64,000 nucleotides of DNA from Spirochaetia bacterium (GTDB taxonomy: Bacteria > Spirochaetota > Spirochaetia > WRBN01), in NCBI GenBank assembly GCA_965249825.1, contig CBDFMW010000002.1, positions 98,644 through 162,643 on the forward strand, read 5' to 3'. The notes under the pieces are model-generated. The model saw only the letters and a list, made by a program, of their open reading frames with translations. It did no database searches and was not told where the DNA came from. Of this stretch, positions 3,396-41,676 are shown piece by piece. A program made the position numbers and the translations under genes. Position 1 is the first letter of the stretch. Every line of letters begins with the position of its first letter.

Positions 3396-4808
3396 ATGTC
3401 TGTTAATCAATTATCGCTCACTCAACTCTCTGCCGCCTTGGCGAAAGGTGAGCTGAAACCTAGCACCTTGGTTCAAGCTTATTACGATGCGTATCGCAAT
3501 CAATTGGATCTTAACGCCTATGTTGAGTTTTTTGAGGATGCGCTTGAGGCAGCCCATGCGATGGACTCTCAACGCCCATCAGGCAACCCTTTATGGGCTA
3601 TGCCGGGGGCTATTAAAGATAATTTTTCGGTTAAAAACCGTAAACTAAGCTGTGCCAGCCAAATGCTTGAAAACTATGTTTCGCCGTACACCTCCACTTT
3701 GGTGAGTCGCCTTGAAGAGGCTAGCTTTATCAATTTAGGGCGGCTTAACATGGATGAGTTTGCCATGGGAGCCACAGGGCATTACAGTGCCCATGGTCCT
3801 ACCCTCAACCCGCTGGATAAACTACGGGTGCCAGGGGGTTCTTCTTCGGGCAGTGCGAGCGCTGTGGCAGCCCACACGGCAGCCTTTACTTTGGGTAGCG
3901 ATACCGGTGGATCGAGCCGTTTACCTGCCAGTTACACGGGTGTGTGCGGGTTCAAGCCATCCCATGGGGCGTTGTCGCGCTATGGTTTAACCGCTTTTGC
4001 TCCCAGCCTTGATGTGCCGGGCATTATTGCTCAAACGCCTGCCGATATTGCGGTGGTTTTTCACGCCCTAGCTGGGGTAGATAAAATGGATGAAAGCACC
4101 CGACCGGTGAACACCACAACCCTTGTTCCTTTGCAACCGCTCTCATTAAAAGGCATGAAAGTGGCGAGTTTTTCAGGGCTTATGCAACGTGCAGATGCCA
4201 GCGTGCAAGCGGCCTATGCTAAAGCGGTGGCTTGGTTGGTGGCACAGGGGGCAGTGTTAGAAGAGGTGGAATTAGGCTTAGAAGACACCTTGCTTCGCAC
4301 TTATTATGCCACTTGTTGCAGCGAGGCTGCCAGCAGTTTGGCGCGTTTTGATGGTGCTAGGTATGGACTTAAGTTGCAGGCTGGCACGATTGAAGAGCTG
4401 TTTTGTCAAACACGGCACGATGGGTTTGGGCATGAGGTGCGCCGGCGTATTTTGCTAGGCAACTACTTTTTAAAAGAAGAAAATTATGATCAGTGGTATA
4501 ATAAGGCCGCCCATATTCGCAATGCGTTGCGCGAGCGTGTGATTGAGATTACCAATAACGGGTGTCAGTTGTTTTTGTGGCCGGGCTTTCATGAGGCTTC
4601 ACCTATTGATGCCCCTTCGGCGGATAGCTACACCAGTGACTTAGTGGGTGTGCTAGCAAACTTGTTTGGTGGACCAGCTTTGGCTATGCCTATCCACACA
4701 GGACCGGCTGGCTTACCGGTGAGTGTGCAGCTTTCAGGTGCATGGGGCAGTGATGCCACTGTGTTGCAGGCTGGTGCACAACTGTATACCGACCTTGCTT
4801 GGCGCTAA
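3396..4808 (+). CDS. gatA: Glu-tRNA(Gln) amidotransferase subunit A (amidase signature family)
   Basis: Amidase signature GGSSSGSASAVA, Ser-cisSer-Lys context; start placed at Met 3396 preceded by AAGGAGAG RBS (six-frame ORF begins earlier at 3306). Confidence 0.85.
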   Translation: MSVNQLSLTQLSAALAKGELKPSTLVQAYYDAYRNQLDLNAYVEFFEDALEAAHAMDSQRPSGNPLWAMPGAIKDNFSVKNRKLSCASQMLENYVSPYTSTLVSRLEEASFINLGRLNMDEFAMGATGHYSAHGPTLNPLDKLRVPGGSSSGSASAVAAHTAAFTLGSDTGGSSRLPASYTGVCGFKPSHGALSRYGLTAFAPSLDVPGIIAQTPADIAVVFHALAGVDKMDESTRPVNTTTLVPLQPLSLKGMKVASFSGLMQRADASVQAAYAKAVAWLVAQGAVLEEVELGLEDTLLRTYYATCCSEAASSLARFDGARYGLKLQAGTIEELFCQTRHDGFGHEVRRRILLGNYFLKEENYDQWYNKAAHIRNALRERVIEITNNGCQLFLWPGFHEASPIDAPSADSYTSDLVGVLANLFGGPALAMPIHTGPAGLPVSVQLSGAWGSDATVLQAGAQLYTDLAWR

Positions 4809-5431
4809 GCCAAGCGGAGGGTACTGTTACACATTGATACGACGGTTTCGGGGCTTTCTTGCACCGGAATGCTGTCGTTTTGTTCTATAAAAAAGATCAA
4901 GGTGGCTTCATTGGCAGGGTTGCTGTCGCCTGAAAGGTCGACCAAACTTTGTACGCTGGTGATGAGCTGCTCATTCACCCAGACTGGTTCGCCGTCGGGG
5001 TAGTGCATCTTGGTAAACAGTTTTTGATCGGCATTGCATCGGGTCATCAGGCTTTCTTGGGCCTCTGGAATGATGAGAAAATGGCGTGTTTGCACAAAAA
5101 ATAACCCTGTGCAAGCTAAAATCTCATCGCTATCTTCCTTTAGTTCACGGCGTTTTTGTGCCACGGTGATGAGGGCAGGATTGACCAAGATCTCTTTGTG
5201 TTGTTTATCCATTAAGGTGATGAGGGGGGTGTTATGCTCAGCCATGAGTACCTGCAGCTCATCTAAACTTTGGGTTACCTCCAAGGTCATTTTTTCTTCA
5301 ATAAACGAAATAATACTGACCCGGGTGATGGTGTCATCCGCTGCCAAGTGGGGCTGGCTCTGCACCATGGTAACATGGGCGGGGTTAAAAAAAATAGGCT
5401 TGCCCGCTAGGGACACAAGAGGTAACAACAT
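4805..5431 (-). CDS. hypothetical protein, member of the recurrent (I/V/F)-x-(V/F)-N-P-x-h-I/V motif family
   Basis: 208 aa; four copies of the motif (IFFNPAHVTMV, ILVNPALITVA, VWVNEQLITSV, IFFIEQNDSIP) shared with ORFs 7635, 9509, 12210. Confidence 0.5.
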   Translation of the reverse strand: MLLPLVSLAGKPIFFNPAHVTMVQSQPHLAADDTITRVSIISFIEEKMTLEVTQSLDELQVLMAEHNTPLITLMDKQHKEILVNPALITVAQKRRELKEDSDEILACTGLFFVQTRHFLIIPEAQESLMTRCNADQKLFTKMHYPDGEPVWVNEQLITSVQSLVDLSGDSNPANEATLIFFIEQNDSIPVQESPETVVSMCNSTLRLA

Positions 5432-5512: not shown

Positions 5513-7582
5513 GTGAATTACCAAACAATACTTAAGGAAGAAGGTCAAAAGATGGGTAAAAAAGTGAATCTGTTTAACTACAGAGCCTCCAAGGCGGAAG
5601 GTAATAAGCATATTACAATTAATGAAAACTTGCTTACTAAAGAGTTTTTAGGATTGTTAAGGGTGATGAATAATCATGCTTTAATGGAGGCGTTGTGCGG
5701 GCATAATTTGTGCTGGGCTAATCATCATGAGCATGAATATGTTGTTGAGTATACAAATGTAGAGATTGATCAATCCAGACCAGATGGTATGATTGCCTTA
5801 AAACATGCTGATGGTACAACCGAGGTGCGGCTGTTTTTTGAAAACAAGGTGGATGCGCCATTACGGGCAGAGCAACTGAACCATTATTTAGACAGCCATG
5901 CCACACAGAAACATGATCGGCTATTGGTGGTTACTCCTCGTATTCATGATAAACAAATAGTGAAGGGCATGGGCGATGAGCGCCTTATTTTTCACACTTG
6001 GGATGACGTGGCTAAGCTTTTAAAAAAACATGGTAAAACGAATGCTACCGAAGAGCGATTGGTTACCCTCTTTTTGGAGGCGATGGAACATTTGGCTGGT
6101 TGCTCGGAACTTACCCCAGAAATTATTAATGATAGCAATTTTGTTCAAATGAACCAATTTATGACTAAGGTGCTGGATAATATAGATCTCTTGGCGTATG
6201 GCGTGAAACTCGCCGGACGTTTTGACAATTTCGGAGGCCTTTATTCTTATCTCTTTAGGGGCGATCGTTGCCATGACTCTTTTGCTAATCTAGGTGCTTA
6301 CTTTTACACCGATGATTTCGGCATTCCCTTAAAAACAGAAGGCGTGCCTGAATTTATGCTTATGTTCTCTATCCTCCCGAATCACCAAGAAAAGTTGATT
6401 GATGATAAGCTTAAAGCGATTGTTGACACGCTCGTGAAGAATGGTTTTGAGAGCAACCTAGACGGCGATGTCATCACTAATAAACGGCATATGCTCTGGT
6501 ATCGCCAGCCCATCACATCGTCCTTCACCGTTGATCAAGCGTTAGAGTTTACCAACACCGCCTTCGCTTTGTTAGCCCAAGCTGGGGCTTTTGCCCATCC
6601 TTACTTTAAATATCTGAAAACCGCCAAGTGGAATGGACTAGTCCATAGCTGGGCTAATCATATGAACGAACAGTATTTTTTAGGGCATGATGATGAGGCA
6701 CACCCTCTTGGGTCCAACACCTTTTTGGGTTACTACTTTACCCCTACCCCTGATAATGATTGTTTATGGTTTGGCGTACATCATGATGCGCAAGCGTGGG
6801 AGCTGCCCCTGCTAGAGGAAGGGCAGCCTGACCTGATGTTTATCTGGTGGCTGTATGATGAGACAATGAATAACGATCCATCGCTACAAGCTTTGGTGCA
6901 ACAACTCACCCAGCAAGGCTTTGAGTTATTGGTGTCGCCAGCACATGAAGGGTGGCACTATCTTGGTTATCGCAAAACTTTATTGGACGGCGACGATGAA
7001 GCTCAGCACGAGCAAGCGGTGGCTTTTACCCAAGAGATGTTTGCTAAAATGAACCAAGCTAAAACGTTTGACCATCCGTACTTTGCATGGATAAAAAATG
7101 CCAACTGGACAGCCCTAGCCGACAGCTGGGCGAACAAAATGGACTCATCGACCTTTGAACCACACCACAGCCCTTGCGAACGGTTAGGCGGTCCGATTAA
7201 TGGGTATAGTTATAACCACAATGATGAGCGTAGTCCGGGTGCTACGTTACAATGGTTTGGGGTGATTAACGACCCTGCAGCATGGGATTTAGAACCTTTA
7301 ACCACAGGGCAACCCGAGCTTATTTTTATTTGGTGGATTGATGAAGAAGTGATCAACAATCCCTTGTTCCAAGAGCTGTTGATCACCCTTAAGAAAAGTG
7401 GGTTTGATTTCGGGTATCACACAAACGAAGGCTGGTACTTCATCAGCTACCGCCAAACTTTGCAAGACGGCACGGACGACGCCCAGCTAGCCCAAGCGTG
7501 GGCGTTTACCGAAACTATGTTTAAAGTGATGGAAGAAGCCCAAGCTTTTGGTCATCCTTATTTTAAGCAGTTTAAAGAGTAA
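5513..7582 (+). CDS. hypothetical protein: N-terminal PD-(D/E)XK-like nuclease motif plus three tandem ~165-aa repeats each ending in HPYF
   Basis: 689 aa; RPDGMIAL...FFENKVD matches PD-x(n)-ExK; repeats ...AFAHPYFKYLKTAKWNGLVHSWANHM / TFDHPYFAWIKNANWTALADSWANKM / AFGHPYFKQFKE with conserved WFGV..D..AW.L.PL..GQP.L.FIWW. Confidence 0.55.
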   Translation: MNYQTILKEEGQKMGKKVNLFNYRASKAEGNKHITINENLLTKEFLGLLRVMNNHALMEALCGHNLCWANHHEHEYVVEYTNVEIDQSRPDGMIALKHADGTTEVRLFFENKVDAPLRAEQLNHYLDSHATQKHDRLLVVTPRIHDKQIVKGMGDERLIFHTWDDVAKLLKKHGKTNATEERLVTLFLEAMEHLAGCSELTPEIINDSNFVQMNQFMTKVLDNIDLLAYGVKLAGRFDNFGGLYSYLFRGDRCHDSFANLGAYFYTDDFGIPLKTEGVPEFMLMFSILPNHQEKLIDDKLKAIVDTLVKNGFESNLDGDVITNKRHMLWYRQPITSSFTVDQALEFTNTAFALLAQAGAFAHPYFKYLKTAKWNGLVHSWANHMNEQYFLGHDDEAHPLGSNTFLGYYFTPTPDNDCLWFGVHHDAQAWELPLLEEGQPDLMFIWWLYDETMNNDPSLQALVQQLTQQGFELLVSPAHEGWHYLGYRKTLLDGDDEAQHEQAVAFTQEMFAKMNQAKTFDHPYFAWIKNANWTALADSWANKMDSSTFEPHHSPCERLGGPINGYSYNHNDERSPGATLQWFGVINDPAAWDLEPLTTGQPELIFIWWIDEEVINNPLFQELLITLKKSGFDFGYHTNEGWYFISYRQTLQDGTDDAQLAQAWAFTETMFKVMEEAQAFGHPYFKQFKE

Positions 7583-7634: not shown

Positions 7635-8876
7635 TTACAGTAAGCTATCCAACGGCTCGGTAATGTCTAGCGTGTCGTAAAATTTGCTAAACTGCAGCTG
7701 TGTGCCAATGGTGTCATTCGGTTCTATCAGCGTGGCGCGGGCAAGGCGAACATGGTTCAAGTTCACTAATATTTCATCGCCGGTAGGTGTATGAAACAGT
7801 TTAAAGTGATGGGCGGTGGTTAAAAAATAAAATTTTTCTAAGGGTTGGGTGCAGGGCATAAACAGGTTGTCATCGGCAAAGGTGATGAGTGTGCCATCAT
7901 CGTGGGTTTGGATACGGCTCACTTGGTGCAGATTGATAAACACCCGCAACTCAGGCGATGTGTGCTTCATGGGTATGAAAAAAGGCAAAGAGAACAACTG
8001 TTTTAAAGGCAGGTTTAACACATCAGTGTGCGTTTTTAACAGGTAGGTAACATGGCTACGCCACACCACACGGTCATCTTTAATAATGTGCCGTGTGCAG
8101 CTCACATAACTCATCAGTGAAGGGTTCACCACCACAGGTAACCCTTCATGGGTAAACCCGCTTAACAAATACGTTTGCTTTTTGCGCCATAGCCGGTGCA
8201 GCTTGGGCAATACTTCAGGCACTTTGTAAACTTCACCATTCACTAAGGAAAACACACTGTTTTTGTCAGCAGGCTTGCCAGAAGGCATAAGACTGGCGAC
8301 AAACTGGCTATTAAGTCCATAGCGGGAACCCTGCCCGTCAGGTAACCAGATAAAGGTCCGCCATGCTTTACTCCACAAAAAACGTAAGCGGGGTAAGGAA
8401 AGCGGATGAAACCAAAACTGTCCATCTAAGGAGTGAAGATGACTAAAGCGACGTTTGGTGGGCTGTTGTAAGCTGGGGCTAGCCCCACGCAGCAGTTGGT
8501 GAGTGGAGCTAGTGGCACGGCCCCGTTGCACAGCTAGCAACCGACTGATGTGTAAATAGTAGGGGTCGTCTTGGTGTAAAGGGGCAAAAAACTGTTTAGG
8601 TGAAAAGCGTTTTAGCATAGCCCATGAACGCACCATAGGAGCTATGTGTAAAATGTGCTGAATGGACTGGGCAATGAGCAATCGAGGCGTGAGCGAATCA
8701 GGCCAATCGCTCAAACTAAGCCAGCTTATAGAGTCAGCATCTTCGGCTGGTTTCAGCGTACGCATAGCCTCCATGAACGTCGGGTTCACTAAGATGACTT
8801 GTTTATGACTTTGGGTACGGGTGGTTTCAATCAAAGAAATAAACCGCACTTGTTCAGAGAAGGTTTTTTTTAGCAT
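7635..8876 (-). CDS. hypothetical repeat-motif family protein (413 aa)
   Basis: Motif copies VILVNPTFMEA, VVVNPSLMSYV, VFINLHQVSRI, ILVNLNHVRLARATLIEPNDTI; paralog of ORFs 9509 and 12210. Confidence 0.55.
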   Translation of the reverse strand: MLKKTFSEQVRFISLIETTRTQSHKQVILVNPTFMEAMRTLKPAEDADSISWLSLSDWPDSLTPRLLIAQSIQHILHIAPMVRSWAMLKRFSPKQFFAPLHQDDPYYLHISRLLAVQRGRATSSTHQLLRGASPSLQQPTKRRFSHLHSLDGQFWFHPLSLPRLRFLWSKAWRTFIWLPDGQGSRYGLNSQFVASLMPSGKPADKNSVFSLVNGEVYKVPEVLPKLHRLWRKKQTYLLSGFTHEGLPVVVNPSLMSYVSCTRHIIKDDRVVWRSHVTYLLKTHTDVLNLPLKQLFSLPFFIPMKHTSPELRVFINLHQVSRIQTHDDGTLITFADDNLFMPCTQPLEKFYFLTTAHHFKLFHTPTGDEILVNLNHVRLARATLIEPNDTIGTQLQFSKFYDTLDITEPLDSLL

Positions 8877-9487
8877 GAGGCATTAAACAAGTTTGCAACC
8901 TGCTGCAACTGGGGTAAATCTTGGTTTAAAAGAGCTTCATAATTGGCTTCAATGGTTTCAATAGGCCAGTTCCACCAGTTTAAGGTGAGCAATGCCGCCG
9001 TTATCTTGGCACTAAAAAGTGGACGAATAACCACCGCAGGGCTACCCCCCACAATGGTGTATGGGGGTACATCTTTGGTAACCAACATAGTACTGGCAAT
9101 GATAGCCCCATGCCCAACAGTGGTGCAACCCTTGCGGTTAAAGTGGCGGTCATCGGGAATAGCATCAGGACTCACGCCATCTTTCCAAAATAAAGAAAAG
9201 GTGGTGAAGGCGTTGGTGTGATGTTGACCATAGGGGCAAATAAACGTGGCATCAGAGGCAATTTGGCAAATTTTACCAATAATTAGTTGAGGGGGGGCGT
9301 TAGGGTTAGGGTCATCATACAGCGCCTTGGTGTTTTCAACCTGTGCCACTTCGCCGTTGTGGTCGTGATAGTAGCTGTAATCCCCCACTTGGATGTGAGC
9401 TTTGGTGATAAAATGCTTTAAAAAGATCAAGCTGGTCAATGGCGTGCCACTGATGTGAATGGGGTATTTTTGCTTTTTATCAAACAT
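8870..9487 (-). CDS. xenobiotic (XAT-class, Vat/CatB-like) hexapeptide-repeat O-acetyltransferase
   Basis: 205 aa; KYPIHISGTPL...IQVGDYSYYHD and C-terminal VTKDVPPYTIVGGSPAVVIRPLF...LNWWNW match CatB/Vat family throughout. Confidence 0.85.
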   Translation of the reverse strand: MFDKKQKYPIHISGTPLTSLIFLKHFITKAHIQVGDYSYYHDHNGEVAQVENTKALYDDPNPNAPPQLIIGKICQIASDATFICPYGQHHTNAFTTFSLFWKDGVSPDAIPDDRHFNRKGCTTVGHGAIIASTMLVTKDVPPYTIVGGSPAVVIRPLFSAKITAALLTLNWWNWPIETIEANYEALLNQDLPQLQQVANLFNASC

Positions 9488-9508
9488 CCTGCACCGTCCT
9501 CTTAGTTA

Positions 9509-10750
9509 TCAATTATCGGCTGGTTCTAAAAGTGTCTTAATCTTAGATAGCGATTCTCGCACCAAAAGCGGGTCATGACTACTGAGCAACACCAGCTGAG
9601 ACGTTGCAGTATCTGATGGATTGATAAAGACGACCACCACCTGCTGGGCATTAATTAACAAGGGGAGATCGCTTACGCTTGTCTCTGGAGTTAGCGTGAG
9701 AAGTGGGATGGCAGAATGGGAGAATAACTGGCTTATTAATGCGGTTAAATCGGGTTCACTCCACAGGGTTAGGCTTGAACCAAATGCTAAGATAATGGTG
9801 TAGTAGAGGGCAATTTGGTATCCGCCTTCAGTATCTTCATTCACCTGTTTGCTGGGCAACACACTTTCAATATGCTCGGTGTTAATGAGCATCGAGCGTT
9901 GGTTGTGAGCATTTAGGAATGGGCGAAATAAAGGGAAAGCGTTGCTAAGCAAGTTGGTGAAGTAGAGCATGGTGTCGCTCACCTGAAATGCGTCACCAGT
10001 GCCGATAAAGGTGAGCTTGGTGAGCCACACAATATCATCGCTTTGGGGTAATAGATGGCGCCCGGTGGTAATAGAGGTAACCATGGCTGGGTTAATAAAG
10101 CGCTCTTCGGTGGCTTTATCGCCCACATAGAAAAACTGCACTTTAATAAAAGCTTTCGCCGTTAAGGTGATCAGCTCGTCAATACTTGTGCTCACAAAGA
10201 GTTCATGCCCTTGTTGAATAAAGCCAAGGCGTGAGCCGTATATGATTTGACCGTTTGCATCTATCATAGGGCAATGAGCAATCCAGCGGATGAGACTGGT
10301 TTGCACCAACACTTGCGCCCCATGTGGCATGGTCAGCGATACAGTGTCTGCCTTAAAAAATAGTTGCAACTGGTGCAAGGGTGTGGTGATGAGCAGGGCA
10401 GGATGGTCGTCGGTAAAATGACATTCACTGTGCCAACTGATGAGACGCTGGCGCTTGTTGGTTGTTTTTTGGGCTAAAATGTAGGTAACAAGCGAGCTGT
10501 TGATAAGTACGGGGTCGCCTGCACCATCAATGGCATCAATAAAATGCGATGACATTGCCATGATCGTGTGACGAATCTGCTCGATAGGTTCGGTGATCAG
10601 CAGAGTACTCATACGAAAAGAGAGCGAGAGAACACTGCAACGCTGCATTGAGCCGTCATTTTTTTCTATAAGCGTGGGCTTAACACTGTTAATGTGGGCA
10701 ATATTAACCAAGATAGCTTGCTCTTTGAGCGGGTGCAACATTACAAACAT
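9509..10750 (-). CDS. hypothetical repeat-motif family protein (413 aa)
   Basis: AILVNIAHINSV, PVLINSSLVTYI, ERFINPAMVTSI, SMLINTEHIESV, VVVFINPSDTAT motif copies. Confidence 0.55.
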   Translation of the reverse strand: MFVMLHPLKEQAILVNIAHINSVKPTLIEKNDGSMQRCSVLSLSFRMSTLLITEPIEQIRHTIMAMSSHFIDAIDGAGDPVLINSSLVTYILAQKTTNKRQRLISWHSECHFTDDHPALLITTPLHQLQLFFKADTVSLTMPHGAQVLVQTSLIRWIAHCPMIDANGQIIYGSRLGFIQQGHELFVSTSIDELITLTAKAFIKVQFFYVGDKATEERFINPAMVTSITTGRHLLPQSDDIVWLTKLTFIGTGDAFQVSDTMLYFTNLLSNAFPLFRPFLNAHNQRSMLINTEHIESVLPSKQVNEDTEGGYQIALYYTIILAFGSSLTLWSEPDLTALISQLFSHSAIPLLTLTPETSVSDLPLLINAQQVVVVFINPSDTATSQLVLLSSHDPLLVRESLSKIKTLLEPADN

Positions 10751-10845
10751 GGGGATGGGGTCGTCTCGCTTTTACTTTAATTTTAGTGAAAAGCACAGGG
10801 GGTGTCAACTCAGTTAAACATTACCTCGAGCTTCATAGTAGAAGT

Positions 10846-12207
10846 TTATTCAGGGGCTTTGCCCCATCGATCCATCAGTAGGTAAGCAGTATCTACTAGG
10901 TTTACCCAATGAGATAATTGGAGGTTTTCAAGTTGTTCCTTGGTTCCCCCTTTTTGAAAGAACACTGCTAAAAGAGTAGGGTGATCTTTTTTTGCTTGCC
11001 ATCTTGTTGCTGATGTTTGCTCATTATCATTAGTCTTTTGCATCAGATGTAATAGTTCCGCTTGACTAAAAAAAGACATAAAAGGTGCAATTAATGTTGA
11101 GAATTTTATGGTGGCTTCATCCCAGTTTCTACTATGACTATAAAGGCGAGTGAGTACTTCATGTAAAATAATAGTTAGATTAACCTCTTGAGCTTGCACA
11201 TAGAGAATCTCTATCACTTCAGGACGGATGTTTGTAAAATCATATTCTGTCGGTATTTGTTCAAAATGCTCTTTTAAGTTGGATGCTAAAAATGTAGCCA
11301 CAAATGCTCGATCCAAACGAGGTATTCCTCGATATTGTGTCTCGTTGACAAATAGTTTAATCATATTTTTAATATTCTCAGGAAAAGCATGATACAGATG
11401 ACTTAAATGACAACCCAATAAGGTTATAGCGTACTCTTTGCCATAGACATCAGCTTCTTCGATAAATCTTGTGTAATAGCCAAGCTCGCTTTCCATGAAC
11501 TCTACGCACCAACTCCGCCGTTCGGGTTTGCTAAGCAGATGGAATAGTGAGGCATAATAAATGGCTCGATGAGGGTGAATGTCCTCATCGGTAGGGTGAA
11601 TGACAAATTTCCATAAAGCCCTAAAAATAGTTTTGCAAGATGTTTTGTCTAGCCGATGAAAATATCTGTTGTCTAAATAGGTAGCAAGCGTTTTTCTGTC
11701 TGCCAACTGTCTGCTTTTTGCAGCCAAGTCTTTAACCATTTTGTCCACTATTTTTTTGGGAAGCATAGCGGGTTTGAGCAAAAGTTCTTCGAGGGCGTTA
11801 CGCAGAGCCGCTCTAGCTTCTTCTTTAGTAGGCTGAAACAAAACCAGCTCGTCAGATAAACTAGGATGGGCACACCTATTACGATCACTGCGAATGCGTT
11901 CTAATCGTTCTTTAGCCTGTCCTTGCAGAATCCAGCCTTTTTCAAGTAAGGTCTTCTCCCATTCCATCGATTCCTTGTGGCTTTTAACCGCCTCCAGGTC
12001 GGCTAAGATTTTTTTGGCTGTGTCATCCCCTTCAAAATCACTTAAATGTTGCAATTTAAACACAATATCGCATAAAATCACCGTCCACAGTGAAACAATC
12101 ATGGCACGGTAGTTTCCTGAAGTGTAAGAGCTATACACTTCTTTAAAATATTCACGAGTTTGAGCTTGTGAGATTTTTTCCATAACTTCTTCTAGGTCAA
12201 ACATCAT
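10846..12207 (-). CDS. HEPN-domain (Rx4H) Abi-like protein
   Basis: 453 aa; N-terminal helical domain with RIRSDRNRCAHPS (R-x4-H HEPN motif, aa 109-114). Confidence 0.55.
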   Translation of the reverse strand: MMFDLEEVMEKISQAQTREYFKEVYSSYTSGNYRAMIVSLWTVILCDIVFKLQHLSDFEGDDTAKKILADLEAVKSHKESMEWEKTLLEKGWILQGQAKERLERIRSDRNRCAHPSLSDELVLFQPTKEEARAALRNALEELLLKPAMLPKKIVDKMVKDLAAKSRQLADRKTLATYLDNRYFHRLDKTSCKTIFRALWKFVIHPTDEDIHPHRAIYYASLFHLLSKPERRSWCVEFMESELGYYTRFIEEADVYGKEYAITLLGCHLSHLYHAFPENIKNMIKLFVNETQYRGIPRLDRAFVATFLASNLKEHFEQIPTEYDFTNIRPEVIEILYVQAQEVNLTIILHEVLTRLYSHSRNWDEATIKFSTLIAPFMSFFSQAELLHLMQKTNDNEQTSATRWQAKKDHPTLLAVFFQKGGTKEQLENLQLSHWVNLVDTAYLLMDRWGKAPE

Positions 12208-12209
12208 TA

Positions 12210-13418
12210 TTACTCTTTAGCCGACCACAGGGCATTCATCACCAAAAAAATGCTCTCTTGCACGGTGATATGGTCATTCATCTGCAATAAATAGATCTCT
12301 GTGGTTTCAGGTGAACTGTGGTGTGTGGTGAAACAGTGTGATACCATGCACGGATTAATTAAAATTTCAAGACCATCTAGTAAATGTAAGGAGATAAACA
12401 CTTTATCTTTATGACTAAAAAAGGCCTTAATATGGGACCAACTCTCTTTTATAGGAGTGGGGTGTTTTCCGTCTACAAAAAAGAGACTTAAGTAGGGATT
12501 AGGCGATCCATAAGTATTATAGCCCTGTTGCACCACACTCACTAGATCAAGGTTTACCAAAATATCTGTGTGTAAAATGTGGTGTAGCCTAAGAAAATTG
12601 TGTTCTAAAGATAAAAGGGAGGTGAAATAACTTATATTGTTCACTACCGCTTGCGTGTGCTGCACGCCAATAAAATGAAGTAAAGCCCCACCCGTTCCCA
12701 ATAACGGGGCGAGTGGTTCAATAAAGGTGATGAGTTGAGGATTAACCCACAATAATACATCATCTTGATAAGATTTTGGCTGAACAAGAGATGTGCCACG
12801 TAACTTTAACCAAGTGTTTTCAATAAGGCTAGGGGACGCGGACACCAGCGGTGCTTTTAGTGAGACATCGGTAAAGTGTAAAAGGTTTTTTGGGATAGAG
12901 TCATTGCCGACTGCACTTACGGTATGATTTATTGAGAGTTGAGTGGCTAAAGAAAACCCCAGTAAACAGAGCTCTTGTGAGTGCAATAGAGCTATAGAAC
13001 AAGGTATTCTCTGTTGTTGTAGATAAAGATTAAGCGAGTTCAAATCTTGTTTAATGTAAAGAAAATGATTTTGATAGGCCATTACTAACTGCGTATGCTC
13101 ATGTATCACGTCTGTTCTAGAATTTCTTTGGTAGCTTGTAATGCCCAAACTCATTAAACTAAAATTAACTAGAGCAAGGTTATTGTCTATGGTTGTCAAC
13201 TGAATAAAGGCAGGCACTTGCTCTTTAAAAAGAGTACAGAGAGATGAAAATGACTCTTTAACCAAGATTTGGGCATCACGATTGGTAAAGGTGATAAGAC
13301 TAAGCTCCTCTATTTCTCCTGAAAGGTGATTTTGCTGGTAATGTGGTATTACCACCGTGCAAGAGGCAGGATTAATCATCAATATGCCTAATGTCATGCT
13401 GTTTAATGGAATAAACAT
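12210..13418 (-). CDS. hypothetical repeat-motif family protein (402 aa)
   Basis: LALVNFSLMSL, LLWVNPQLITFIEP, LEILINPCMVSHC motif copies. Confidence 0.55.
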   Translation of the reverse strand: MFIPLNSMTLGILMINPASCTVVIPHYQQNHLSGEIEELSLITFTNRDAQILVKESFSSLCTLFKEQVPAFIQLTTIDNNLALVNFSLMSLGITSYQRNSRTDVIHEHTQLVMAYQNHFLYIKQDLNSLNLYLQQQRIPCSIALLHSQELCLLGFSLATQLSINHTVSAVGNDSIPKNLLHFTDVSLKAPLVSASPSLIENTWLKLRGTSLVQPKSYQDDVLLWVNPQLITFIEPLAPLLGTGGALLHFIGVQHTQAVVNNISYFTSLLSLEHNFLRLHHILHTDILVNLDLVSVVQQGYNTYGSPNPYLSLFFVDGKHPTPIKESWSHIKAFFSHKDKVFISLHLLDGLEILINPCMVSHCFTTHHSSPETTEIYLLQMNDHITVQESIFLVMNALWSAKE

Positions 13419-13462
13419 ATTACTATTCCATATGAGGCAAGGAGGTGAACGTAGTCATGGCA

Positions 13463-14206
13463 TTACTTAGAGGTGGAATCATCAGCATTGGGGTTTACAG
13501 CCTGGCAACTGAGCATCTTAATGAGATTACTAAATATCTCTTGATGATGAGTACTTACCTGTGGCCCATCACAACGCTTTAACCAGTAATTAATAAAATT
13601 AAGGCTAGGGTGAGAAAACTCTTCACTGAGCAGCTCCTCTAACCGTTGCATATACTCGATTTCAGTGAGTTTTTGAAGCATTTTAGTAGGGTGAAAGGAG
13701 TGCTTGTGCAACTGCTCTAACAGCGTTAAATTAGCAGGTTTTAAGGAAGTCAAATCGACACTGGTAAAAGGTTTTTTATCCAAAATGCCTTCTTCGCTAA
13801 AGTCTGCAAAAAATTGATACACACAGCCGTTCGTAAGGATGGCTAACTGAGGTTTTTTAAAGGCAAACACAGCGTGCATCGTGTTGTAGCAGGTTTCAAA
13901 ATCTTCATCCACATACACACCCATTACAAAAAGGGGTTCTTCATGTTGCCAAATAATATAGTCAATGTGGTAGGTGTGCGTTTGGGCTTGCGGGCTTACC
14001 GCATTCATTACGCTTGAGGTGTCTAGCACCAATCCTCCCAGCATAATCGCCATGGGGCTGGTTTCAGGCAGGTTCAGATCCACTTCTAATGGACCACAGT
14101 GCACTTCATCAGGGTTGGTAATATCATAACCTAGGGCGGTTAAAAAGGGTTGCACCAGCACCGCATTGATGCTGGCTTTGGTGGTGAGATCGTGCTGAAA
14201 ACGCAT
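13463..14206 (-). CDS. hypothetical protein (first gene of minus-strand operon)
   Basis: 247-aa ORF; start codon lies inside a perfect 43-bp tandem duplication. Confidence 0.45.
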   Translation of the reverse strand: MRFQHDLTTKASINAVLVQPFLTALGYDITNPDEVHCGPLEVDLNLPETSPMAIMLGGLVLDTSSVMNAVSPQAQTHTYHIDYIIWQHEEPLFVMGVYVDEDFETCYNTMHAVFAFKKPQLAILTNGCVYQFFADFSEEGILDKKPFTSVDLTSLKPANLTLLEQLHKHSFHPTKMLQKLTEIEYMQRLEELLSEEFSHPSLNFINYWLKRCDGPQVSTHHQEIFSNLIKMLSCQAVNPNADDSTSK

Positions 14207-14263
14207 GTGTTTTTCGGTTATTGGTGGTGAGATCGTGCTGAAAACGCATGTGTTTTTCGGTTA
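14178..14263. repeat. perfect 43-bp tandem duplication (2 copies) spanning the start codon of ORF 13463..14206
   Basis: ttggtggtgagatcgtgctgaaaacgcatgtgtttttcggtta at 14178-14220 and again at 14221-14263. Confidence 0.95.
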
Positions 14264-14331: not shown

Positions 14332-15264
14332 CTAATCATTAAACTTTGTCAGGACTATTTCTCTAATATCGTCAGAAATACTGACAAGCCATGAGGCTAA
14401 TTGGTCGGTAGTCTGCAAATAGGTGAGAACCTCTTCTTGTCTTTCTTTAAGAACGCCAAAAATATGCGGTTTACCATCGGCTGTTTTGCCACCAGCGGTA
14501 AAAATATCTCTAAAATTCGGGCAGATGCAGTTGAACCGTTCTAGCAACAACAAAGAGGCTTTATCAAACTTATTGGCTTTGTTGGTGAAAATTTCAGGGC
14601 ATTCCGCCAATGCCATCACGATAAAGGTTTCTTGAGTGGGCTTGTCCAGTGTTCGCCATTGGCGCAAGATAGGCGTTGTGAATTGCTGGTCATCCATCCA
14701 CCACAGGGTTTCTCCGTCTTTTAATGTGTGAGAAAAGTATTCTTTCAATTGCTGTACTTTGTTTTCGTCCGTACGAAATTGATCGTAGGAGGTGTTCAGT
14801 TTATGAAAAATAGTATCGGTGGGGGATAGCGACATATCTATTTTATAGCGTGGTGAATGGGTAACCCCAATCGAGGATAAACACTCTTCATAGCGTTTGT
14901 AGCGAATATTTCTTGATCCACCGAGCTTACCAAATAGCATGTAAATATGCTGCAACTCCGCTACCCGATTGGTTTCCATAATACTGTTGCCTAGGCTTGT
15001 CCAGCCATCTTTTTGGGTAACTTTTACCTCCACGCCAAAGTTGCCGCTGGCTATAATATCAGGAAAGGATAAAGCCCCTGTTTGCTCAATATCCCAGTTA
15101 CCTTGGCTTGCCTCTTTCATTAGGTCGACCACAAACTGCTCAAAGCTTTGCCCCGTCATCTTGGCACTGAGGCTGTTAATAGTTTGTAAACCCAGTTGTT
15201 TACTTTTTTCTAATAGCTGAATGAACTCAGGTTCAGTATGCACTCCTTTTGCTATGTGAATCAT
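14332..15264 (-). CDS. Type II restriction endonuclease (PD-(D/E)XK fold), cognate to adjacent C5-MTase
   Basis: PD-ExK motif SFPDIIASGNFGVEVKVTQK; likely start Met at 15262-15264 forms ATGA overlap with MTase stop, GGAG RBS upstream. Confidence 0.6.
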   Translation of the reverse strand: MIHIAKGVHTEPEFIQLLEKSKQLGLQTINSLSAKMTGQSFEQFVVDLMKEASQGNWDIEQTGALSFPDIIASGNFGVEVKVTQKDGWTSLGNSIMETNRVAELQHIYMLFGKLGGSRNIRYKRYEECLSSIGVTHSPRYKIDMSLSPTDTIFHKLNTSYDQFRTDENKVQQLKEYFSHTLKDGETLWWMDDQQFTTPILRQWRTLDKPTQETFIVMALAECPEIFTNKANKFDKASLLLLERFNCICPNFRDIFTAGGKTADGKPHIFGVLKERQEEVLTYLQTTDQLASWLVSISDDIREIVLTKFND

Positions 15265-16211
15265 TTCAAATACTCCATCACTTGCCGTGCTATATGCCAC
15301 GCAAACACAGGCGGCACGGCATTGCCAATTTGTTTATAAGCGGCTGAGGTGGAGGGAAGAAAAATAAAATCATCAGGAAAGGACTGCAAGCGAGCGGCTT
15401 CGCGTGCCGATAAGCGTCGGCTACCATCCCACAAAAATTCAATGTTGCCGTGGTGTTCAGCCCGCATGGCTGGAGCTATTTTATTAGCAGCAATGTTGGT
15501 GTTGCCTTGTCCATTGGTGCGTTTAGCCTTGGACCACACATGATTGATAAGTTTGTTTTCAGGCAAGTTTACCAAATCATGAAGAGCTTCTTGAGCTGTT
15601 ACATGTTGGATGCAGGTGGGGGCAAGGTGTGTAAAAAAAGTATTAGGATAGGCGGTTTGTTTTAAGCCCACAATAATCACCCGGCTACGCGATTGAGGCA
15701 CGCCAAAGTCTGCCACTTGATACAAATGGTAATTCACATTGTAGCCTAGTGCCGTAAAATCATTCACAATCGCTTTAATGGCTTGCCCCTGCTCAATGTC
15801 TAAAATACCTTTCACATTTTCGGCAATGAAAATGTTCGGGTTGGTCAGGCTAATCACTTTTAGCATGGCGGTGTAGAGTAAGCCCCGTCGGTCCTCAAAG
15901 CCTTGGCGTTTGCCAGCATAGGAGAACGGTTGACACGGAAAGCCCCCTAACACCACATCAGCTTGTGGGGGAATGACCCCTGAGTTGATGCCATCCCAAA
16001 CATCACCACTAAAGGGGGCGTGGTTAAAGTTGTGTTGGTAGGTTAAGCAGGCGTTTTTTTCAATGTCGCAGGCAAAAAGCGTGTTAAAATTGTGCTTGGC
16101 ATAGTGCTTGGCATAGTGCTTGGCATAGTGCTGGTTCAAAAAAGAAAAATCGCCACGAAAGCCTAAATCTAAGCCACCAGCCCCTGAAAAAAGAGATACA
16201 ATATTAGGCAT
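15261..16211 (-). CDS. DNA (cytosine-5)-methyltransferase
   Basis: Motif I FSGAGGLDLGF, motif IV GGFPCQPFS, motif VI ENVKG, motif X QIGNAVPPV; start ATG 16209-16211 preceded by AGGAG. Confidence 0.9.
   Translation of the reverse strand: MPNIVSLFSGAGGLDLGFRGDFSFLNQHYAKHYAKHYAKHNFNTLFACDIEKNACLTYQHNFNHAPFSGDVWDGINSGVIPPQADVVLGGFPCQPFSYAGKRQGFEDRRGLLYTAMLKVISLTNPNIFIAENVKGILDIEQGQAIKAIVNDFTALGYNVNYHLYQVADFGVPQSRSRVIIVGLKQTAYPNTFFTHLAPTCIQHVTAQEALHDLVNLPENKLINHVWSKAKRTNGQGNTNIAANKIAPAMRAEHHGNIEFLWDGSRRLSAREAARLQSFPDDFIFLPSTSAAYKQIGNAVPPVFAWHIARQVMEYLK
16094..16129. repeat. in-frame 12-bp tandem repeat x3 (gcttggcatagt) encoding (HYAK)3 inside the MTase
   Basis: Three exact copies between MTase motifs I and IV. 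Confidence 0.9.
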
Positions 16212-16293
16212 AAAACTCCTGTTGGTATGTGAGTGAAATCGATATACACAAAGCATTATAGCACCTAAAGAGTAACAAGACTATTCGGTTACA

Positions 16294-37098: not shown

Positions 37099-38644
<1,546 letters not shown>

Positions 38645-38799: not shown

Positions 38800-41676
38800 A
38801 TGAGAGAGGATAGTATGGATAAAAATGTAGGGCTATCGACTGAAGAGATTTTGAATAGCAGGCAAACGAATGGATCTAATCTTTTAACGCCAGCCAAAAA
38901 CCCATCATGGCTGTGGCTTTTTTATCAAAAATTTGATGATCCCATTATTCGTATTTTACTCATTGCTGCCTTCATATCTATAGGCGTTGGCTTTTTCGAT
39001 GGTCACTTTATGGAAGGCATAACAATCATTATTGCGATTTTGATGGCAACTGGGGTGGCTTTTGTCAATGATTTGGGGGCTCAACGTCAGTTTGATGCCC
39101 TCACACTAATCGCAAGTGATGTTCTGTATCGGGTTTTACGCAATGGGGTTCATACCGAGATTTCAAAAAGTGAAATTGTTGTAGGTGATATTCTTTTTTT
39201 AGAGCGCGGAGCTGAGATTCCTGCTGATGGTGTTATTTTAGAGGTGCAAGCAGCTCTTGTGAATGAGGTCGCCCTTACTGGTGAATCTCAAGCCGTAGTT
39301 AAATCAATAGAAGAGCTACTAACTAAAAAAACAGCTTTGTCCTCAAATAAGGTCTTTCGAGGGACACACATTGAAGAGGGATCGCTTTCTATGCGCGTAG
39401 AAAAAGTAGGGGATCAAACATACATTGGGCAGTTAGCTACGCTCACGATGCAGGACAGCGAAGTAGAAACCCCACTCAATAGGCAACTAACGGGGCTGGC
39501 CAAGGCGATGAGCGTTATTGGTTTTTCGAGTGCAGGTCTTATTTTTGGCTTGCTAATTGCTCGTGATATTAGAGAAGGCTTTATTATTTTCCCTTCTCAC
39601 GCCCAATGGTCGGCATGGCTGGTGTTTTTTTTAGGCTTGGTCGTGTTTGCCCCAGTATGGTTAGCTATTTTAGCCGATCTTCTTGAACTCATTTCTCCTT
39701 TATCTACTTCAAAATACCAATTTTTTCGGATAACAAGTTTTAAAAGAGGGTTTTTTCTTGTTATCCTTATGGTCACTCTCGTCGTATTTTCGATTTTCTA
39801 TGTTGCCTTTATAGATAGTTTAACCCTAATTGAAGCGGTACAATACTTAAAAAGGGGCGTTGTGGATGCTTTTAAGGGGAGTAATGGCCTTCAGCTTTTA
39901 GAGCATTTTATGGTGGCGATGACTATTTTGGTGATGGCTGTACCGGAGGGTTTACCCCTCAGTGTAACTTTGGCACTCTCCTACAGTGTTAAATCTATGC
40001 TGCGTGGAGGTACTTTAATTCGCCACATGCATGCTGCGGAAACATTAGGGGCCGTTACAACTATATGTACTGATAAAACAGGCACACTTACGCAGAGCAT
40101 AATGAGCATGAATCACGCCAGTCTTACTGCTAGCGATGAAATGGGCTGGGTGTGCTTGGCTGTTAATAGTACGGCAGATTTGAGTCATGATATGGGAATT
40201 ATCGGTAATCCAACTGAAGGAGCTATCCTTGTGTATATTAATAAACACTTGGGCTTAGATTATGATGAGCTGCGTCGCCGTGCCACTAACATTAAGCAAG
40301 AACCCTTTAACTCTGATCGTAAATATATGGCATCATCTTTTAGGGTTGATGGGCTTGACATTGTTACCATTAAAGGTGCCCCTGAAGTGGTATTAGCTCG
40401 TACTACTGTCACCGATGAAGTGAAAGAGTGTTTACTTGCCGAAATAAAGCAGTTTCAGGCTAAAGGTATGCGTGTGCTAGGTATCGCTTATAGAGATACA
40501 ACTAATGAGGCTGGAACTGTGTTGCGTAACATGAGCAATTTACTATGGAAAGGATTTATTGTATTGAGTGATCCCTTAAGAAGTGAGGTTCCTAGCACAA
40601 TAAAAGTCTGTCACAAAGCAGGAATTGATATTAAAATGGTTACAGGAGATAATCTAGATATTGCAGTCGAGATAGCAAGACAGGCCCATATTTTACCGCA
40701 TGACTTCACTTTTGATATTGATACGCGCGCAAGAGTGAAGGAAGGATCGGTATTGACAGGAGTAGAGTTTGCCGGATTATCTGACGCTGAAATCTTGATT
40801 TTATTAGAAGAAGGTAAGCCACATGTTGTCGCACGATCGACACCACAAGATAAAATGCGTTTGGTTACGCTTCTTCAAACTTCCGGTGAAGTAGTGGCGG
40901 TTACGGGTGATGGTACAAATGACGGCCCTGCGCTTAATCATGCTGATGTTGGTGTGGCGATGGGACTCACAGGCACGGCTATTGCAAAAGAAGCAGCTGA
41001 CATTATCATAACTGATGACAGTTTTGTAAGTTTGCAACATGGCATTTTGGGTGGACGTAGTTTATATTCAAATTTACAACGTTTCATTTTATTTTTACTT
41101 ACCATAGGAATAGTTGCACTGCTTTTGGTGGTTATAACCAGCTTTTTGGGGTGGTTTTTACCCTTAACGGTGATTCAAATTTTATGGATTAACATAATGA
41201 TGGACAGTTTTGCCGCACTGGCCCTATCTACTGAGGCAGTTGATCCTCATGTGATGGATAACCCCCCAAGAAACAGTAGTACGTTCATTATTACACCACA
41301 GATGGCGATTGAAATGGGTCTAATGAGTGCAGTTATACTGGCTCTTGCCTTGTTTTTTATGCAGAAATATGGCAGTCAACCATCGCTTCTTCAATTGACC
41401 TTATTTTTTAATATTTTTTCTTTTAGCCAGATTTGGAATTTAATTAACGTACGTTATTTTAATCGAAACATAGGGGATATGAAAGAATTTCTAAAAAACC
41501 CTATGTTTACAATCATTTTAATTATAATAATTACTGGGCAATGGATGATAACCCAGTGGGGCGGGTTGACCTTACGAACCACCCCGCTAAACCTTGAGCA
41601 GTGGTTTTTTGTGATTGGCATCACATCCCCAATTTTTATCATTCGAACTCTAATTCGAGTGGTTTTTAAGCGTTAA
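38800..41676 (+). CDS. P-type (P2, Ca2+/cation-transporting) ATPase
   Basis: DKTGTLT phosphorylation motif, TGES, VAVTGDGTNDGPAL, 8-10 TM segments; true start possibly Met at 38815. Confidence 0.9.
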   Translation: MREDSMDKNVGLSTEEILNSRQTNGSNLLTPAKNPSWLWLFYQKFDDPIIRILLIAAFISIGVGFFDGHFMEGITIIIAILMATGVAFVNDLGAQRQFDALTLIASDVLYRVLRNGVHTEISKSEIVVGDILFLERGAEIPADGVILEVQAALVNEVALTGESQAVVKSIEELLTKKTALSSNKVFRGTHIEEGSLSMRVEKVGDQTYIGQLATLTMQDSEVETPLNRQLTGLAKAMSVIGFSSAGLIFGLLIARDIREGFIIFPSHAQWSAWLVFFLGLVVFAPVWLAILADLLELISPLSTSKYQFFRITSFKRGFFLVILMVTLVVFSIFYVAFIDSLTLIEAVQYLKRGVVDAFKGSNGLQLLEHFMVAMTILVMAVPEGLPLSVTLALSYSVKSMLRGGTLIRHMHAAETLGAVTTICTDKTGTLTQSIMSMNHASLTASDEMGWVCLAVNSTADLSHDMGIIGNPTEGAILVYINKHLGLDYDELRRRATNIKQEPFNSDRKYMASSFRVDGLDIVTIKGAPEVVLARTTVTDEVKECLLAEIKQFQAKGMRVLGIAYRDTTNEAGTVLRNMSNLLWKGFIVLSDPLRSEVPSTIKVCHKAGIDIKMVTGDNLDIAVEIARQAHILPHDFTFDIDTRARVKEGSVLTGVEFAGLSDAEILILLEEGKPHVVARSTPQDKMRLVTLLQTSGEVVAVTGDGTNDGPALNHADVGVAMGLTGTAIAKEAADIIITDDSFVSLQHGILGGRSLYSNLQRFILFLLTIGIVALLLVVITSFLGWFLPLTVIQILWINIMMDSFAALALSTEAVDPHVMDNPPRNSSTFIITPQMAIEMGLMSAVILALALFFMQKYGSQPSLLQLTLFFNIFSFSQIWNLINVRYFNRNIGDMKEFLKNPMFTIILIIIITGQWMITQWGGLTLRTTPLNLEQWFFVIGITSPIFIIRTLIRVVFKR

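Follow-up and report, generated by a model that had tools for sequence, protein, structure and literature searches.

Concatenated SwrD/FlbD-like repeat proteins and interspersed defence genes in a variable gatA-ruvB locus of an Entomospira-type spirochaete

The genes lying between gatA and ruvB were analyzed in a 64,000-nucleotide stretch of DNA from a Spirochaetia bacterium (NCBI GenBank assembly GCA_965249825.1, contig CBDFMW010000002.1, positions 98,644 to 162,643 of the forward strand; GC content 44.6%), hereafter called the window. Four genes of this locus, A208, C413, E413 and G402, code for proteins built of a repeat of ~68 amino acids (aa) which, from sequence profiles and a structure model, reads as a SwrD/FlbD-like domain; with them lie a HEPN nuclease (F453), an acetyltransferase (D205) and other genes mostly related to defence. 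Each gene is named by its open reading frame (ORF) letter followed by the protein length in aa, and all coordinates refer to the window (Table 1). The block is bordered by gatC/gatA on the left and by the Dcm methylase J331, the type II restriction enzyme I322, ruvB and rho on the right; ruvB and gatA are 11.5 kb apart, and the stop codon of A208 overlaps that of the convergent gatA. The gene order is J-I-H-G-F-E-D-C, with junctions of 44 nt (H-G), 2 nt (G-F), 95 nt (F-E) and 21 nt (E-D) and an overlap of 7 nt (D-C). The first-pass annotation had read positions 7635 to 14263 as a six-gene operon with overlapping or near-overlapping junctions, bordered by a restriction-modification (R-M) system. 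The reading frames concerned (C413, D205, E413, F453, G402, H247 and also A208) were found where it had placed them, on the minus strand, and the close junctions are there at D-C and G-F, the F-E gap being an exception; the R-M border is likewise real and consists of J331 and I322. The upper limit of the block needs correction, as 14263 falls in the upstream half of a tandem duplication (43 bp per copy) that carries the H247 start codon, and the in-frame start of H247 is 14206.

Table 1. Features of the gatA-ruvB locus and their positions in the window
Feature	Position	Strand	Description
A208	4805-5431	-	three tandem SwrD/FlbD-like units (aa 1-68, 70-137, 139-204)
C413	7635-8876	-	SwrD-like units at aa 17-85, 237-297, 302-356, 357-413
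E413	9509-10750	-	six tandem SwrD-like units (aa 1-67, 69-135, 137-202, 206-273, 278-349, 353-412)
G402	12210-13418	-	five supported SwrD-like units (aa 1-68, 71-139, 213-271, 275-338, 341-401)
F453	10846-12207	-	DARNA/PD-T7-3 ('Dandelion'), HEPN tRNA anticodon nuclease
D205	8870-9487	-	XAT (Vat/CatB-type) hexapeptide acetyltransferase without one 18-aa left-handed β-helix coil
H247	13463-14206	-	small endonuclease with HsdR-N/PD-(D/E)xK-like region; beside repeat genes in relatives too
Tandem duplication	14178-14263	none	perfect 43-bp duplication, 100% identity (repeat search); covers H247 start codon and 5′ end
I322	14332-15300	-	type II restriction endonuclease; PADLOC REase_II E = 4.8e-42
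J331	15261-16256	-	C5 cytosine DNA methyltransferase adjoining ruvB; PF00145 9.4e-69, TIGR00675 3.1e-70
B689	5513-7582	+	large protein with PD-(D/E)xK-like N-terminal region (…FENK…); outside the repeat family
Promoter-like site TTGACA-17-TAAAAT	10780-10808	-	within the 95-nt F453-E413 gap

The four repeat proteins are joined by BLASTP at several offsets (best 51.6 bits for A-G and 47.8 bits, over the full length, for E-G), a pattern characteristic of an internal repeat. A hidden Markov model (HMM) built from the three units of A208 alone (iteration 0) scored 54.6 bits with E413, 39.3 bits with G402 and 22.7 bits with C413, and about 0 bits with six neighbouring proteins outside the family, which bears out the paralogous multi-repeat family that had been proposed at first. 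Counted as HMM domains, the supported units are 3 in A208 (about 78 bits each with the HMM trained on the family itself), 6 in E413, 5 in G402 and 4 in C413, 18 in total. G402 has besides its five supported units one degenerate stretch of unit length (aa 141-212), and the middle of C413 (aa 88-236) is basic, rich in W and R, two unit-lengths long and without detectable repeat signal. Unit scores of C413 aa 88-238 and G402 aa 141-212 were no better than those of shuffled sequence, and these stretches, with room for two units in C413 and for one in G402, are possibly degenerate units.

The short motif noticed at first in these proteins was searched as [IVFLM][LFVIMW][VFIWLM]Nxxx[IVMLC]; its recurrence is statistically supported, with 15 occurrences in the four paralogs, 0 in nine neighbouring proteins and 0.1-0.4 per protein in shuffled sequences. 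An alignment of the 18 delimited units, ~68 aa each, has Asn15 in all units except one (17/18), a hydrophobic residue at position 19 in 18/18, and hydrophobic residues at positions 12-14, 41, 43, 50, 52, 56, 59, 62 and 63 in at least 80% of the units. The isoelectric points of A, E and G are acidic (4.7-6.0) and that of C413 is basic (9.7). The repeat search found no DNA-level similarity left among the paralogs and the duplications are hence old; judged by their sequences, A208, C413, E413 and G402 are distant, old paralogs sharing the ~68-aa repeat.

The identity of the repeat was taken from profile and model comparisons together. With Pfam PF06289 (FlbD), A208 scored 26.1 bits against a gathering threshold of 24.7, a total over three domain hits none of which passes the threshold alone, and E413 scored 17.0 bits; in the Pfam alignment N153 of A208 stands at profile position 15. 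SwrD is the same protein family as FlbD, and crystal structures are available from Bacillus and Borrelia (PMC13232269; bioRxiv 10.64898/2026.05.26.727983). In the hexameric ring of SwrD, a sheet is made up of β3-5 from one subunit and β1-2 from the adjoining one, and the Asn15-xxx-Leu/Ile19 turn at the pore makes hydrogen bonds to the adjacent subunit (bioRxiv 10.64898/2026.05.26.727983). The recurrent motif of the paralogs is the core of the ~68-aa repeat and corresponds to this ring-forming Asn-xxx-Ile/Leu element; together with the PF06289 scores it makes the resemblance to FlbD, described as loose in the first-pass annotation, more than loose. AlphaFold2 folded one unit (unit 2 of A208, 18-row alignment) with a predicted local distance difference test score (pLDDT) of 93.6, giving strands at residues 2-5, 11-14, 21-28, 35-43 and 48-52 and a helix at 56-66, and the predicted order β-β-3₁₀-β-β-β-α is the order in the SwrD crystal structures as compared by their published description. 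Foldseek found no significant match of the unit model in the PDB, which had no SwrD entry by April 2026, and phmmer found nothing for A208 among PDB sequences. Sequence and model in combination thus argue that the repeat is a SwrD/FlbD-like domain.

The domain has its own features in this family. Glu23 and a Pro-Asp-Thr loop are conserved in all SwrDs and are the proposed partner interface; SwrD raises motor power and is conserved in spirochaetes, which rely on high-torque periplasmic flagella (PMC13232269). Among the 18 units neither Glu23 nor the Pro26-Asp27-Thr28 loop is conserved and no column has a majority of E, P or T; Asp occurs at one loop column in 8/18 units, the loop being longer and variable. 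The β3-β4 connection is longer than in SwrD and differs from unit to unit, and is conserved between orthologs. RemA and the LytTR domain of AgrA are among the closest structural relatives of SwrD, and a LytTR domain resembles two SwrD subunits side by side (bioRxiv 10.64898/2026.05.26.727983).

Full-length E413 was modelled by AlphaFold2 from 5 aligned sequences as six copies of the unit fold, with a pLDDT of 80.6 and a predicted template modelling score (pTM) of 0.77; a pTM of this size is not to be expected from six flexibly joined domains and indicates a compact arrangement. Adjacent units are predicted to contact each other as the halves of a LytTR domain do, via the SwrD-type interface. 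From the six units, the SwrD-type interface, the pore motif and the presence of a three-unit paralog we infer that E413 may be a single-chain pseudo-hexameric ring, and A208 is proposed, on the same modelling, to be a half-ring that makes the ring as a dimer.

The distribution of the family is very narrow. A search of 5.8 billion proteins with E413 returned 2 matches, which are itself and a 60%-identical protein on contig L001 (a 4-kb contig of run SRR18067437), and an exhaustive search of 1.84 billion representatives with the unit profile returned four strong hits, all of this family. Window proteins looked up by exact sequence had no record. The weaker hits of the profile are spurious repeat proteins, a few FlbD-like singletons of 58-88 aa, the two-unit protein P0017 and the three-unit protein P0034; two metagenome scans (one with H247, one with C413 and its ortholog) found no further relatives. 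As far as these sequence searches reach, the repeat family is confined to Entomospira-type spirochaetes. Compared with the L001 orthologs, dN/dS is 0.195 for E413 and 0.176 for C413 at saturated dS, and since the ratio is ~0.18-0.20 purifying selection is acting on both. C413 is 65% identical to its ortholog over the whole protein and close to 90% identical in the last three units.

The HEPN protein with an Rx4H motif that had been noticed among the repeat genes is also real and can now be named, for F453 is on its sequence matches DARNA/PD-T7-3. It matches PADLOC PD-T7-3 (PDLC04108) with E = 5.5e-96, residues 3-418 covering profile positions 4-414 of 432, and PDB 9wxf ('Dandelion', 12 chains) with E = 3.6e-47 over residues 2-398; its Rx4H is RNRCAH (residues 109-114, window 11866-11883), aligned with RHLSAH of 9wxf. 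PD-T7-3, studied with the E. coli protein, is DARNA, a single-gene abortive infection system whose dodecameric HEPN nuclease cuts tRNA anticodon loops once phage single-stranded DNA (ssDNA) binds the C-terminal domains, and which is controlled by ssDNA and by a loop of its own (bioRxiv 10.64898/2026.02.22.705581). The nearest homologs of F453 in the protein search are only 32-35% identical, and no close homolog is present among the 5.8 billion proteins, a set that does include the E, C, G and H orthologs of relatives; from this difference a recent and isolated acquisition of DARNA is suggested. The context of one homolog (contig L082) is a mobile-element-like region with no SwrD-like neighbour. 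By analogy with the known system we infer that F453 acts as an autonomous tRNA nuclease, a cargo independent of the repeat proteins.

The assignment of D205 to the Vat/CatB-like acetyltransferases also stands, the protein being of the XAT type. Its best score is 111.7 bits with NCBIfam Vat (cutoff 300), which is below the Vat/CatB equivalog cutoffs. In the alignment with CatB 3eev one segment of the query matches two successive coils, the coil being lost between two 'GH' repeats, and the His of the QGH catalytic region is aligned. The ortholog on the JGI contig L086 (4399-5064) keeps the coil and has an in-frame stop. On these sequence signs D205 is probably decaying, and decay of the gene seems to have set in separately in two lineages.

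The surroundings of the repeat genes were compared in three relatives. The organisms of L001/L085 (both from SRR18067437) and L086 have ~80% DNA identity to the window, and their gene contents differ from the window and from each other. L085 has ruvB, the methylase, a fragmented I322 ortholog, an H ortholog and the start of a G ortholog; in L001 the C ortholog comes straight after the E ortholog, the acetyltransferase being absent between them, and a truncated B-like gene comes next. L086 has R-M remnants, an H ortholog, remnants of G (with a stop) and of E (with stops) and then the acetyltransferase with its stop, and no DARNA was found on that contig. Entomospira nematocerorum is the nearest genome compared (RuvB 68% and Rho 87% identity), and its ruvB-gatA gap of 1.4 kb holds FlbD-like genes and no defence genes. 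Three ORFs run in the same direction in this gap (L002 11077-12358), with lengths of 278, 77 and 71 aa; the first (n278) has a C-terminal FlbD-like domain (Pfam 18.2 bits), the second (n77) reaches 23 bits with Pfam FlbD and 25.6 bits with the unit HMM, and the 71-aa ORF is similar by eye and is not supported as FlbD-like. The three ORFs together have about the length of six units, and it is pure speculation that they are a split version of the same ring. As FlbD-like genes occupy this gap, SwrD-like genes are old residents of the locus.

Neither the gene set nor the order is kept among L001/L085, L086 and E. nematocerorum, and as the content differs among relatives the gene set is in flux with several members decaying. 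The cluster is best read as a mosaic variable island and not as one multi-gene system. Of the earlier interpretation, then, the repeat family, the FlbD likeness, the HEPN protein, the XAT and the R-M border stood, and the single operon with a shared function was not supported: the synteny comparison gives differing gene sets, F453 is a stand-alone DARNA, the XAT is absent or broken in relatives, and a promoter-like site lies between F and E.

We regard as probable, though by no means assured, that these genes code for lineage-restricted, concatenated SwrD-like ring proteins in a mosaic island with independent defence cargo. In this scheme the SwrD/FlbD domain of ~50-70 aa would have been concatenated within one polypeptide in Entomospira-type spirochaetes, so that the ~400-aa paralogs may form covalently closed, asymmetric pseudo-hexameric rings and A208 may form its ring by dimerising. 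The variable β3-β4 hairpins, standing in place of the Pro-Asp-Thr loop, would give six different outer faces per ring, and the rings could serve as a non-enzymatic binding or adaptor scaffold whose outer hairpins are the specific binding faces. The repeat genes would be the resident content of the gatA-ruvB variable locus, and the R-M pair, H247, DARNA, the decaying XAT and B689 would be independently acting cargo which has accumulated, and is eroding, among them.

Several observations weigh against this reading. PF06289 gives no match for C413 and G402, and six units per ~400-aa protein are proven for E413 only. The E413 model rests on a 5-row alignment with a weak unit 5 (pLDDT 51-69), and an open helical array of six units fits its numbers equally. 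In the Pfam scan, which covered ten small hits out of the 27 profile hits (E < 1e-3), 0/10 is a single-domain protein reaching the FlbD gathering score, and in the ten hits checked there is no sign that the repeat profile retrieves canonical flagellar FlbD. G402 and F453 are 2 nt apart and have low GC content at third codon positions (GC3 0.385 and 0.346) compared with A/C/E (0.52-0.57) and the flanking gatA, ruvB and rho (0.46-0.54), which would fit a joint acquisition and perhaps a functional link; their joint source could be a lower-GC relative such as E. nematocerorum (39% GC). Finally, P0017 and P0024, the nearest relatives outside the lineage with usable context, are on phage-like contigs in replication modules, a hint of some part in phage-host conflict.

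The last two observations are shared by the first alternative, in which the co-directional genes are one defence or toxin-immunity system and the repeat proteins sense, regulate or neutralise the HEPN nuclease and/or the XAT. The same strand and the short junctions (G-F, D-C), the location within an island of defence genes (R-M, the H247 nuclease, DARNA), and the low GC3 common to G402 and F453 favour it, as do the structural relatives RemA and LytTR, which bind nucleic acid, ssDNA being the trigger of DARNA. We nevertheless consider it unlikely. DARNA/PD-T7-3 defends as a single gene under its own loop and ssDNA, its L082 homolog has no SwrD-like neighbour, and the missing close homologs suggest a recent and isolated acquisition; the XAT is absent in L001, broken in L086 and minus a coil in the window; FlbD-like genes stand without defence genes in E. 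nematocerorum; and A, E and G are acidic, unlike DNA binders. The F-E gap holds in addition the best promoter-like site of the region, matching 11/12 consensus positions, although the site totals in the scan equal shuffle expectation, and from its sequence it is a possible separate start for E-D-C. Counts in both the promoter and the terminator scans were equal to shuffle expectation, and these scans are weak guides to operon structure.

In a second alternative the paralogs are accessories of the flagellar motor which act on the stator (MotA/B) or the collar and lie in a variable island by chance. Motility is the only known phenotype of the SwrD/FlbD domain family, SwrD raising motor power, the ring-forming Asn-xxx-Ile motif is conserved, and Entomospira are spirochaetes, the group with conserved SwrD and high-torque periplasmic flagella. 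The repeat genes are however outside any flagellar operon, the proposed partner interface (the Pro-Asp-Thr loop and Glu23) is not conserved, G and E are pseudogenes in the close relative L086 and hence dispensable, and the ten profile hits checked (E < 1e-3) gave no sign of canonical FlbD; a motor role has accordingly a low probability. Because none of these ten is a single-domain protein at the FlbD gathering score, the repeat family is, as far as its sequences tell, a separate branch of the fold family and not canonical flagellar FlbD.

It is also conceivable, at a similarly small chance, that the concatenated rings belong to phage-host conflict as a class of proteins not recognised before, which would sense phage proteins or nucleic acids, act as decoys for them, or regulate neighbouring effectors such as DARNA. 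P0017 is a two-unit protein of 141 aa (L087 8001-8426) and P0024 a single unit of 75 aa (L088/L089 5001-5228), and the module genes near them are PD-(D/E)xK, Thy1 and SNF2, and DnaA_C, UvrD and T7 Gp5.9-like; if this proposal were true, these two proteins would suggest that the same fold is also used by phages. Some small hits of the unit profile have matches in families of small phage proteins as well. Cultured phages searched by tblastn with A208 and P0024 gave no hit, and the contigs of P0018, P0034 and P0026 are too short for informative context. Non-flagellar SwrD-like proteins may be common in phages.

That the repeat ORFs are non-functional relics in a shrinking genome, surviving as long ORFs by chance, is hardly credible: the group has small genomes (1.4-1.6 Mb), G and E are clearly decaying in L086, the XAT and the I322 ortholog are decaying in relatives and the repeat signature is gone from parts of C413 and G402, but four ORFs of 208-413 aa are intact, dN/dS is low at saturated dS, the last three C413 units are close to 90% identical in the ortholog, and AlphaFold2 folds a single unit and the whole E413 confidently. 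The repeat genes are best read as functional.

The remaining genes of the locus were analyzed as follows. H247 matches the endonuclease family phrog_4225 (E = 7.6e-32) and weakly Pfam HSDR_N, and its orthologs are 68% identical in L085 and 78% identical in L086. The 43-bp duplication at its start has the look of a recent event, slippage or duplication; as its period cannot be divided by 3, the upstream ATG (14249) is out of frame for H247. In L085 the I322 ortholog (7698-8363) is split over several frames and the methylase that goes with it is whole (88% identity), which would be an orphan methylase in the making. J331 contains three in-frame copies of a 12-bp unit (16089-16132), which give HYAK-HYAK-HYAK near the N-terminus, a tract that could be slippage-prone. 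B689 had no match in Pfam, NCBIfam, PADLOC or PHROGs; its residues 102-191 are 43% identical to the truncated gene adjoining the C ortholog in L001, segments of its C-terminal part recur by eye (HPYF…W.N/W…SWAN…), and it may be an undescribed defence nuclease. A classical integrative element was considered for the island and rejected, as the repeat search found no flanking direct or inverted repeats at its ends and no integrase or tRNA was found there. Elsewhere in the window a complete 16S rRNA gene lies at 37100-38639, directly followed by an ORF of 958 aa (38800-41676), and no 23S or 5S gene is present anywhere in the window, so that the rRNA genes appear unlinked.

These data may be of value in several ways. 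The hexameric rings of SwrD/FlbD have been shown only recently, and a fusion of six domains would be independent evolutionary evidence for the hexamer as the functional unit, only if ring closure is confirmed; a fused ring, if true, is naturally asymmetric and each of its positions can be mutated separately. The fold family of SwrD, LytTR and RemA would be extended from proteins of 1-2 units to proteins of 3 and 6 units. The annotation is changed from "HEPN protein" to DARNA/PD-T7-3 and from a new multi-gene defence system to a variable ruvB-gatA island. What is new here is the lineage-specific concatenation of a known SwrD-like fold, the interleaved F453 and D205 having known functions.

Compared with known systems, the paralogs are nearest to SwrD/FlbD, with which they have in common the unit size, the predicted β-β-3₁₀-β-β-β-α order, the Asn15-xxx-Ile/Leu19 motif, a marginal Pfam match and the structural neighbours RemA and LytTR, and the unit number of 6 (or 3) fits the SwrD hexamer. 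They differ from it in that 3-6 units are covalently concatenated, whereas SwrD is a single chain of ~60-70 aa, and the units do not each have a charged disordered C-terminal tail; the Pro-Asp-Thr loop and Glu23 are not conserved and the β3-β4 hairpin varies and exceeds that of SwrD in length; the genes are outside a flagellar operon and have defence genes around them at the gatA-ruvB locus; and the family, limited to one lineage, can be dispensed with by a close relative. The likeness to LytTR (AgrA, ComE; PF04397) is at the level of the fold only: there is no receiver or signalling domain, six units stand against two, three of the four paralogs are acidic, and E413 scored 13.2 bits with PF04397 against a cutoff of 22.6, over 18 residues only. 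RemA (DUF370) is an octamer of separate chains with a helical β3-β4 insertion carrying the DNA-binding Arg51/Arg53, whereas the units have no conserved Arg between β3 and β4 and the model has an extended hairpin there. F453 is like DARNA/PD-T7-3 (9wxf) in that the profile match covers its full length, that a HEPN domain with Rx4H at the N-terminus is combined with an α-helical domain at the C-terminus, and that the lengths are similar; it is set apart from known DARNA by an identity of about 30-35% to the nearest relatives found, by its host, a spirochaete and not an enterobacterium, and by the SwrD-like repeat genes that flank it.

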